Of a stretch of 1,005 nucleotides of DNA, positions 261 through 1,005 are shown piece after piece. The stretch lies in the NCBI GenBank assembly GCA_000004985.1, contig GG739627.1; one strand, given 5' to 3'. Each line of letters begins with the position of its first letter. The first letter of the stretch is position 1. The notes under the pieces are model-generated. The model was not told the DNA's origin, did not search any database, and worked only from the letters and a program-made list of their open reading frames with translations. The position numbers and the translations under genes were made by a program. This DNA is from Naegleria gruberi (lineage: Eukaryota).

Positions 261-339
261 ATTATATTAAAAAAGAAAAATATCCCCCAAATTATGAAAA
301 AATATCCAAGTCAGGATTGAAAAATTTTCGAAAAAAAAA
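221..339. repeat. Repeat copy 1 (diverged edge copy, roughly 82% identical to consensus)
   Basis: cccctacaacttgtcaattaaagtatattaatagggtttt... aligns to the consensus with one extra C. Differences are clustered at 242-251 and 281-296. The 3' 41 bp (aaaaaatatccaagtcaggattgaaaaattttcgaaaaaaaaa) are identical to consensus. Confidence 0.9.
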
Positions 340-378
340 CCCTACCACTTGTCAATTAAGACGAGTTGATAGGGTTTT
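336..378. other. Imperfect hairpin in copy 2: outer stem AAAACCCTA/TAGGGTTTT, inner stem TCAA/TTGA, flanked by an A-run 5' and a T-rich tract 3'
   Basis: aaaacccta (336-344) is the reverse complement of tagggtttt (370-378). The inner tcaa...ttga pair sits in the loop. The hairpin is preceded by an A9-10 run and followed by ttttattatatt. Confidence 0.5.
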
Positions 379-459
379 ATTATATTAAAAAAAAGAAAAT
401 ACTTTCCCGAACTTGAAAAAATATCCAAGTCAGGATTGAAAAATTTTCGAAAAAAAAAA
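340..459. repeat. Repeat copy 2 (120 bp, identical to copy 4)
   Basis: Position-by-position comparison with 579-698 found no differences. It is preceded by an A9 run and starts CCC. Confidence 0.95.
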
Positions 460-497
460 CCTACCACTTGTCAATTAAGACGAGTTGATAGGGTTTT
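456..497. other. Imperfect hairpin in copy 3 (5' arm has CC against GGG, a one-base bulge)
   Basis: Same inverted repeat as copy 2. The 3' arm is tagggtttt at 489-497. Confidence 0.45.
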
Positions 498-578
498 ATT
501 ATATTAAAAAAAAGAAAATACTTTCCCGAACTTGAAAAAATATCCAAGTCAGGATTGAAAAATTTTCGAAAAAAAAAA
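460..578. repeat. Repeat copy 3 (119 bp)
   Basis: Same as copies 2 and 4, except that the unit starts CC instead of CCC after an A10 run. The single C/A difference lies at the poly-A/poly-C junction. Confidence 0.95.
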
Positions 579-617
579 CCCTACCACTTGTCAATTAAGA
601 CGAGTTGATAGGGTTTT
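575..617. other. Imperfect hairpin in copy 4
   Basis: aaaacccta (575-583) pairs with tagggtttt (609-617). Identical to the copy 2 hairpin. Confidence 0.5.
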
Positions 618-698
618 ATTATATTAAAAAAAAGAAAATACTTTCCCGAACTTGAAAAAATATCCAAGTCAGGATTGAAAAATTTTCGAAAAAAAAAA
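579..698. repeat. Repeat copy 4 (120 bp)
   Basis: Identical to copy 2 by direct comparison. Confidence 0.95.
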
Positions 699-737
699 CC
701 CTACCACTTGTCAATTAAGACGAGTTGATAGGGTTTT
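695..737 (-). terminator. Stem-loop followed by a T10 run on the minus strand, about 45 nt downstream of the minus-strand CDS stop. Candidate intrinsic terminator or 3'-end-stabilising stem-loop.
   Basis: On the minus strand the sequence reads aaaaccctatcaactcgtcttaattgacaagtggtagggtttttttttt. The stem is CCCTA/TAGGG plus A:T extensions, with an inner TCAA/TTGA pair, followed by the complement of the A10 run at 689-698. The stem has only 3 G:C pairs, so it would be weak as a canonical rho-independent terminator. Confidence 0.3.
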
Positions 738-780: not shown

Positions 781-1005
781 CTATTGAATGTTTTTATTTA
801 CAGTATTTACAGACATCTTATTACGGTACCAAGATAATGCCACTAATGGTCCTCCAGGGGATCGACGAGTAGGAGGTCTTTCACGTTGATTATTTACAGG
901 TTCTTCCTCGGGTTCTTCGTAAGGTACTTCCTCTTGCTTCCTCTTCCGTTTCAATTCCTTCTCTCTTTGTTCATAAATTCCTTGTTCATGGTTAATTTCT
1001 ACAGT
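781..1005 (-). CDS. 3' part of a protein-coding gene (5' end beyond the window). The last 74 codons and the TAG stop are visible. Hypothetical protein with a charged low-complexity C-terminal tail.
   Basis: The reverse-complement frame is open for 74 sense codons and ends in TAG (complement of 781-783). The other two minus-strand frames hit stops within the first 20 codons. Translation: TVEINHEQGIYEQREKELKRKRKQEEVPYEEPEEEPVNNQRERPPTRRSPGGPLVALSWYRNKMSVNTVNKNIQ*. The codon third positions are A/T-rich, in line with the window's overall A+T richness. Rough chance estimate for an open frame this long in this composition is below 1-2 percent. I did not recognise the product. Confidence 0.55.
   Translation of the reverse strand, partial: TVEINHEQGIYEQREKELKRKRKQEEVPYEEPEEEPVNNQRERPPTRRSPGGPLVALSWYRNKMSVNTVNKNIQ

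Follow-up and report, generated by a model that had tools for sequence, protein, structure and literature searches.

Location of the array on the rDNA plasmid of Naegleria gruberi

The window analysed here, a stretch of 1,005 nt from contig GG739627.1 of the eukaryote Naegleria gruberi, is part of the circular nucleolar ribosomal DNA (rDNA) plasmid (CERE) of this organism, and contains an array of hairpin-bearing 120-bp tandem repeats situated in the plasmid's non-coding, non-ribosomal sequence (NRS). Positions are those of the whole window unless a contig is named, and the rDNA-sense strand corresponds to the minus strand of the window. The CERE has a size of about 14 kb and is present in the nucleolus at about 4000 copies per cell (PMC5805870, PMC13398248), with repeats making up 31% of its NRS (PMC5805870). 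Its replication is of the theta type and starts at a single origin (PMC13315211), which lies within the NRS on a 2.1-kb fragment; a 636-bp piece is used in vectors (PMC13315211, PMC12845041). The sequences that control transcription, replication and transcription-replication conflicts on the CERE are stated to be unknown (PMC13398248, PMC13315211).

The window was compared with the CERE contigs that encode P0001, the protein of the open reading frame (ORF) next to the array, or close relatives of it. The gene order on one strand, 18S-5.8S-28S-ORF-array, is fixed (contigs L003, L005 and L007). The array starts 40 nt past the stop codon of the ORF and approximately 1.67 kb past the 28S 3' end: on L003, where eukaryotic small subunit (SSU), 5.8S and large subunit (LSU) rRNA genes share the contig with the array, the 28S gene ends at 9381 and the array occupies 11051-11452 on the same strand, and L005 and L007 are arranged alike. 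The array is flanked by one conserved ORF, which is encoded on the rRNA-gene strand, and on the opposite side by non-coding repeat DNA. A sequence-only reading of this stretch had suggested a barrier between converging genes; the single conserved ORF and the non-coding nature of the other flank do not agree with such an arrangement.

Anatomy of the 120-bp tandem repeat

The array, placed on the minus strand and delimited by TRF, repeat families, unit alignment and cross-locus comparison, extends from position 216 to 741, with a period of 120, 4.4 copies and 95% matches in the TRF output. The start-to-start spacing of the units is 119/119/120/120. With a head-to-tail unit within the range of 10-200 bp and a copy number that is polymorphic between strains, the array is a minisatellite or variable number tandem repeat (VNTR). 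Unit alignment displayed a divergent first unit (196-319), three near-identical internal units, and a last unit which ends right after the hairpin at 741. Every full unit contains AAAACCCTA ... TAGGGTTTT, with A9-10 ahead of it and TTTTATTATATT after it, so that the order of A-run, hairpin and T-rich tract previously noticed from the letters was confirmed in each of them. Read 5' to 3' on the sense strand, a strong unit consists of AAAACCCTATCAACTCGTC-TTAATT-GACAAGTGGTAGGGTTTTTTTTTT, then a T-rich spacer of about 70 nt, which corresponds to a composition of a core of about 50 nt and a spacer of about 70 bp. Within the array of the window, the spacers are mutually 97-99% identical. The G+C content of the array is 26-31%, and A/T tracts are phased along it.

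In sense order, the array is laid out as three copies of a strong hairpin with spacer A, one strong hairpin with spacer B, one degenerate hairpin, and unique sequence. The linker, the modules and the degenerate copy are placed on the minus strand. A linker (742-780, 79% identical between lineages) separates the ORF stop from the first hairpin. Module 1 (689-737), the nearest to the ORF, comprises a hairpin at 695-737 followed by a sense T10 (the plus-strand A-run at 689-698); module 2 (569-617) comprises a hairpin at 575-617 followed by a sense T10; module 3 (450-497) comprises a weakened hairpin at 455-497 followed by a T-run; and module 4 (331-378) comprises a hairpin at 336-378 followed by a sense T9 and then by the spacer-B variant. 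The terminal copy at 217-260 is degenerate, having lost the inner stem and having an interrupted T-run, and folds at the level of shuffled sequence. The sequence-only reading had placed five hairpins, 120 bp apart, within 336-737; the 120-bp repeat stands, while four hairpins are located there and the degenerate fifth lies outside, at 217-260. The five copies are one hairpin multiplied by tandem duplication and not independent events, and their even spacing is due to the period of that single tandem duplication.

Hairpin fold and strand polarity

The minimum-energy fold of the hairpin has 17 bp (nine outer, one, and seven inner; 7 G:C), one mismatch/bulge region and a 6-nt loop, AAUUAA. The loop of about 25 nt that had been proposed on a 9-bp stem is therefore mostly paired. 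Of the four hairpins within 336-737, three fold at about -20 kcal/mol and the fourth at -14 kcal/mol. The strong hairpins reach -20.3 to -20.5 kcal/mol on either strand, with z-scores of -4.9 to -5.7, and 0 of 200 shuffles equalled them. These energies, far from zero on both strands, together with the seven G:C pairs, contradict the description of the stem as thermodynamically modest. By module, the values are -23.8 kcal/mol with flanks (z -5.6) for module 1; -20.5 kcal/mol (z -4.9) for the minus strand of module 2 and -20.4 kcal/mol (z -5.6) for its plus strand; and -20.5 kcal/mol (z -5.05) for module 4. Module 3 carries a C to A change in the outer stem (sense GGG to GGT) and folds at -13.8/-14.3 kcal/mol (z -2.4/-3.2). 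The degenerate copy at 217-260 is no more stable than its shuffles (-8.1/-10.5 kcal/mol, z +0.2/-0.2). When folded as DNA, the palindromes, which are cruciform-capable, reach -9 to -11 kcal/mol.

The stem abuts an uninterrupted T9-10 without a gap on the rDNA-sense strand only, the tail on the opposite strand being UUUUAUUAUAUU, and the earlier view of a hairpin followed by a U-run on either strand is revised accordingly. The configuration of an intrinsic terminator, a stable stem-loop directly before a U-tract on the transcribed strand, is thus found on the window minus strand. A simple terminator consensus scan, the kind of prediction that the sequence-only reading had proposed as a check, returned 0 sites in the window. 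In a scan of the whole CERE, in which the 55 nt upstream of every run of T>=7 were folded on both strands of L007, the array modules were the strongest sites combining a hairpin with a T-run (T10, about -20 kcal/mol, gap 0), and all of them were located on the sense strand.

Copy number variation and conservation between lineages

The number of copies varies between closely related CEREs: 4.4 in the window, 3.4 in L003, 2.4 in L001 and L005, and 5.4 in L007. This variation concerns the spacer-A units, of which there are three in the window, two in L003 and one in L001, and, in a second lineage (L004, L005 and L007, whose ORF is 83% identical to that of the window lineage), one (L004/L005) or four (L007). 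As the number varies in both lineages, the VNTR expansion is, on these unit counts, independent in the two. The degenerate end copy is common to both lineages and is therefore old. At least two strong modules are retained in all CEREs sampled (5/5).

Between the window lineage and the L005 lineage, the hairpin and its T-run are identical at 50 of 50 nt (100%). The other segments are less conserved in the same comparison, with 90% identity in spacer B, 86% in spacer A, 85.5% in the distal flank, and 79% in both the linker and the degenerate copy; in the non-coding segments around the core, 59 of 408 aligned columns differ. Under the non-coding and synonymous rates, all 50 positions would stay unchanged with a probability of about 4e-4 or less. 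The identity of the core between the lineages does not result from homogenisation within the array, because the spacers have diverged, and the 50-nt core is, as judged from this comparison, under purifying selection. The single stem change between strains, a G to A substitution in L003, converts a G.U pair on the sense strand into an A-U pair. In L006, which has the most divergent ORF lineage (64% amino acid identity), the contig ends (2029-2072) with ...AGTATTTTTCTTTTTTAATACAATAAA, a sequence that precedes the hairpin elsewhere, right at the first hairpin; the array is probably present in this lineage too, with the assembly broken at the repeat.

Similar sites near the 28S gene and in Naegleria fowleri

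Two further sense-strand hairpins followed by U7-U9 are located 140-200 nt past the 28S end in both lineages (L003 9470-9582; L007 6520-6635). These two were the next best sites after the array in the L007 scan. The first consists of a hairpin of -19.7 kcal/mol followed by UUUGUUUUUUU; the second consists of CCAAGUUGAUCAGCUUGG followed by U8-9, with -15.3 kcal/mol. The rRNA unit and the ORF thus have the same pattern at their ends, and the 28S-proximal hairpins are candidate primary terminators or candidate processing signals in the 3' external transcribed spacer of the rRNA unit.

The CERE of N. fowleri (TY, supplement S1 of PMC13398248) carries a 166-bp tandem repeat that starts about 150 nt past the 28S gene. 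It corresponds to the '168-bp tandem direct repeat' (feature 1 of MT741533; PMC7714845), whose copy number is polymorphic (PMC11075319). On the sense strand, each of its units displays an A-tract, a hairpin and T9-10, GGAAAAAAUAUCUGU-UUUAUU-ACAGAUUUUUUUUUU, with -16.7 kcal/mol and a z-score of -6.2. This repeat of 166-168 bp is comparable to the N. gruberi array in that it belongs to the same genus and the same element, follows the rDNA, is tandem and copy-number polymorphic, and has the A-tract/hairpin/T9-10 order on the sense strand; it differs in unit length, in having weaker hairpins, in lying before the ORF, and in showing no sequence similarity. On the N. fowleri element, the repeat is followed by a group I intron annotated in the NRS (PMC7714845) and then by the ORF, the order of array and ORF being reversed with respect to N. 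gruberi.

A putative transcription termination or pausing module

A transcription barrier is the best-supported idea for the array. Based on the identity of the locus, its position and orientation, the strength of the fold, the copy-number polymorphism and the conservation of the core, we infer that the core is an intrinsic-terminator-like module for the termination or pausing of sense-strand transcription, tandemly amplified, and assign a probability of about 0.5 to this function as the one under selection. The polymerase concerned could be RNA polymerase I (Pol I) that has read through the sites next to the 28S gene, or the enzyme responsible for expression of the ORF. After transcription of the stem by the rDNA-sense polymerase, the RNA would fold, and the oligo-U:dA hybrid would destabilise or pause the elongation complex, a mechanism resembling that of a bacterial intrinsic terminator or of the T-tract terminators of RNA polymerase III (Pol III) and Pol I. 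Modules placed in series would provide fail-safe termination, and the array would block read-through round the 14-kb circle into the remaining spacer, the site of the origin and the promoter. Replication slippage or unequal exchange would determine how many units there are (2-5 strong), a number that would be only loosely constrained and not critical in itself.

Several points weigh against such a role. At the canonical Pol I terminators of eukaryotes, a protein roadblock (TTF-I/Reb1/Nsi1) and not an RNA hairpin is at work. The fold of the hairpin is as good on one strand as on the other, loop and sequence are kept as well as the pairing, no compensatory stem changes were seen among the units compared, and the weakened unit of module 3 (-14 kcal/mol) is kept in two strains, those of the window and of L003. 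The 28S-proximal sites may already terminate Pol I, leaving the array another job. The N. fowleri unit has a second, weaker hairpin with T8-9 whose fold is not significant (z -1.0), and the comparison with that species is an analogy drawn in AT-rich DNA, in which tracts of A and of T are frequent. In the CERE literature consulted, no transcript 3'-end mapping, run-on or 2D-gel data were found at the array, and the control of rRNA transcription in Naegleria has been called uncharacterised (PMC13398248).

Because the whole sequence of the core is conserved without compensatory changes, its conservation is equally compatible with an RNA or cruciform structure and with recognition of the sequence by a protein. 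The palindrome could accordingly be read as a protein site at the DNA level, acting as a polar replication-fork barrier (RFB) and/or a roadblock terminator or being bound by the His-Cys-box protein of the neighbouring ORF, with the RNA hairpin incidental; we regard this as unlikely, yet deserving of attention. Its two arms (AAAACCCTA.../...TAGGGTTTT) would suit a dimeric protein, and the His-Cys-box enzymes are, from textbook knowledge, dimers acting on pseudo-palindromes, with such an ORF only 40 nt away; all 50 nt, including the loop, are invariant between lineages, beyond what pairing demands, and the units compared are free of compensatory substitutions; position and multiplicity are those of textbook rDNA terminator/RFB clusters. 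To our knowledge, no protein that binds the array has been reported. Theta replication from a single CERE origin (PMC13315211) also means that one fork should meet Pol I head-on unless it is stopped. A protein site does not, however, predict the strict junction of stem and T10 on one strand, which is also found in the unrelated N. fowleri repeat. Moreover, the window has 0 matches to the Sal box AGGTCGACCAGWWNTCCG (<=3 mismatches) and to the Reb1 site TTACCCGG (<=1 mismatch), a Naegleria-specific factor being possible, and the AACCCTA motif shows no clear enrichment outside the repeats, the telobox AAACCCTA being found elsewhere only in another repeat, plus one more occurrence. In a related and rather improbable scheme, the palindromes would be the cis sites of a plasmid-maintenance system whose adjacent His-Cys-box protein is a domesticated homing endonuclease: the protein would bind or nick the palindromes, and the resulting fork arrest, recombination or rolling amplification would set the copy number of about 4000, a role that would match those of FLP/FRT or Fob1/RFB in yeast.

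The array could also be a neutral minisatellite, in which one ancestral hairpin, perhaps a 3'-end signal of the ORF, was copied by slippage, so that the multiplicity and most copies are functionless. The range of 2.4-5.4 copies among closely related CEREs with independent expansion in both lineages, the decaying terminal copy, the tolerated weakened copy and an NRS consisting of 31% repeats (PMC5805870) all agree with this, but 0 of 50 core positions differ against about 14% in the neighbouring spacers, for which homogenisation is no explanation, at least two strong copies are present in every CERE sampled, and N. fowleri has an analogous array, which makes neutrality doubtful. That the array is part of the replication origin, or a DNA-unwinding or cruciform element, appears quite improbable. 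It is AT-rich, with phased A/T tracts and cruciform-capable palindromes, the single CERE origin lies somewhere in the NRS (PMC13315211, PMC12845041), and an exact match to the consensus of yeast autonomously replicating sequences (ARS), TTTTATATTTA, is found past the right edge of the window, inside the ORF and about 270 bp from the array (L003 10774-10784, minus strand); this lone match in L003 is, however, at chance level (0.48 expected), the consensus WTTTAYRTTTW has 0 matches in the window with one mismatch allowed, and rDNA origins are, from textbook knowledge, usually located upstream of the promoter and not at the 3' end of the unit. Small-RNA genes, one per unit, had been among the earlier suggestions, and the combination of a hairpin and T10 at the unit end is indeed that of many Pol III transcripts; such genes are highly improbable here, given the runs of T5, T6, T4 and T8 in the 70-nt spacer on the same strand, which would stop Pol III early, the lack of a convincing A/B box on inspection, and spacers that evolve like neutral DNA. 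No Rfam family reached its gathering score (the best, SpF36, had 32.5 bits versus 48). Finally, the A-run/hairpin/T-rich architecture and the strong folds on both strands had suggested an intrinsic terminator of the bidirectional type of bacteria, or else a 3' inverted-repeat stabiliser as in plastids, situated between convergent genes. With the host locus being a eukaryotic nucleolar plasmid and the second convergent gene absent, identification of the locus leaves this frame with a negligible probability.

The termination or pausing module remains the function that we favour. A more speculative reading is that a eukaryotic nuclear polymerase (Pol I) uses bacterial-style, factor-independent termination at a hairpin and oligo-U. 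Should termination depend on the hairpin, the mechanism would be unusual among the nuclear polymerases of eukaryotes. The repeat itself was already known, being present in GenBank CERE records and counted among the CERE repeat families; the published CERE descriptions consulted state no function for any repeat and do not discuss hairpins or terminators. New are the anatomy of a hairpin with a sense-strand T10, the evidence for purifying selection, the N. fowleri parallel and a functional assignment that can be tested. The CERE carries all cellular rRNA genes, including in the pathogen N. fowleri, and the array represents a concrete candidate terminator or barrier on it, an element that was picked from a fast-evolving spacer by its purifying selection, clear polarity and architectural counterpart in N. 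fowleri. In CERE-based vectors, it could be used as a terminator or insulator cassette, or be considered as a repeat to avoid or keep, and its copy-number polymorphism provides a ready strain marker.

Neighbouring ORF and other features of the window

The right part of the window (781-1005, minus strand) contains the 3' end of a homing-endonuclease-like ORF of the His-Cys-box (His-Me finger) kind, 344 aa long, of which the last 74 codons are included, with the stop codon at 781-783. An exhaustive HMMER scan found one protein, P0001 (AUH25140.1, 'hypothetical protein [Naegleria gruberi]'), whose residues 271-344 match the 74-aa translation with 100% identity; P0001 matches Pfam PF05551 (His-Cys-box) with E=1.1e-28; the 74-aa fragment alone gave no Pfam match, and no homologue in a word-index protein search. 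The ORF lies on the rRNA-gene strand, which is the plus strand of L003, downstream of the 18S, 5.8S and 28S genes. Three lineages carry it in intact form (83% and 64% amino acid identity; L001 361-1395, L005 7861-8916, L006 986-2029), with dN/dS values of 0.44-0.57, dS up to 0.64, and a synonymous divergence between the window and the L005 lineage of 0.16-0.23. All Cys and His residues of its zinc-binding region are invariant across the three lineages. The ORF, labelled 'likely a pseudogene' in the genome announcement, looks to be maintained by selection on these substitution patterns. No relative was found in the PDB at the sequence level.

Distal to the array, positions 1-215 (no strand assigned) form a conserved non-coding NRS segment, as indicated by BLAST and by the lineage alignment; this distal flank is 85.5% identical between lineages, with indels present. 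Positions 1-174 are part of a non-coding segment of about 290 bp that is present twice in the NRS, about 1.9 kb apart: they match L001 3680-3856 with 92% identity (BLAST), and L005 matches itself at 9284-9575 and 11204-11496 with 94.5%. A convergent gene in this left flank was considered and rejected, as its ORFs have no Pfam or NCBIfam match and it contains non-triplet indels between lineages. A perfect 10-bp tandem repeat, TCCCTTCGAA x2.2, at 189-210 adjoins the degenerate hairpin and resembles a tRNA T-arm; it is down to one copy in the L005 lineage. Interpretation of this TTCGAATCC-like repeat as a tRNA remnant was dismissed, since tRNA prediction found none in the window and the tandem repeat is not kept in the second lineage. 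The heptamer TTTACAG occurs four times on the plus strand (149-155, 797-803, 806-812 and 893-899; 0.2 expected, 0 of 200 shuffles), largely because two of the copies are a 9-bp tandem duplication within the ORF (coding VNT/VNK). The second lineage has not kept the copy at 149, and the motif probably lacks a separate function.

Further identities were tried for the array and discarded: a CRISPR array, since the spacers are not unique (97-99% identical to one another); kinship with the 101-bp NRS repeat, for which the alignment score was no better than that of shuffles; a plastid 3' inverted-repeat element, as the contig has eukaryotic rRNA genes and the neighbouring ORF encodes a Naegleria protein; and membership of the bacterial intrinsic terminators, the host being a Naegleria nucleolar plasmid without bacterial, plasmid or phage matches. 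Blastn of the window against plasmid and phage collections gave no match, and neither did an exact search for the repeat pattern in bacterial and archaeal genome, viral and metagenome contig collections.

Elsewhere on the CERE, L007 has a match to the GIR1 branching ribozyme at 193-389 (202.7 bits), which points to a group I intron of the twin-ribozyme type within the SSU rRNA gene. On L005, which has the same NRS lineage, the 18S gene spans 2020 nt and the GIR1 match was not found. Since GIR1 is present in L007 but not in L005, this comparison suggests a presence/absence polymorphism of the group I intron between very close CEREs.

Comparison with known systems

The array shares with bacterial Rho-independent terminators a stable stem-loop followed by oligo-U, a location 40 nt past a stop codon, and an A-tract on the other side; it differs from them in its eukaryotic host and in the polymerase (Pol I or RNA polymerase II), in its long stem with 7 of 17 pairs being G:C, in its tandem amplification, and in the 0 sites returned by the terminator scan. 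As in minisatellites and VNTRs, a 120-bp unit is repeated head-to-tail with near-identical internal copies, a decayed end copy and a strain-variable number, whereas conservation of the core between lineages far exceeds that of neutral DNA. The STB locus of the yeast 2-micron plasmid consists of tandem AT-rich repeats of about 62 bp beside a transcription terminator, and offers, as a lead only, the likeness of an AT-rich tandem repeat on a high-copy circular nuclear plasmid, near plasmid-encoded protein genes.

The functionally closest known kind is that of the terminator and fork-barrier repeats of rDNA spacers, such as the mouse Sal boxes T1-T10 with TTF-I, Ter1-3 with Reb1 in Schizosaccharomyces pombe, and, in yeast, the Reb1/Nsi1 site with its T-rich element and the Fob1 RFB. 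Unlike these, the array, whose function is predicted, has no Sal-box or Reb1 motif, displays a long hairpin abutting T10 in place of a short asymmetric protein site, and is located on a circular plasmid after an intervening protein-coding ORF. In common with them, it lies downstream of the LSU gene and in rDNA orientation, occurs as several tandem copies with a T-rich non-template strand, and is conserved in comparison with the fast-evolving spacer around it.

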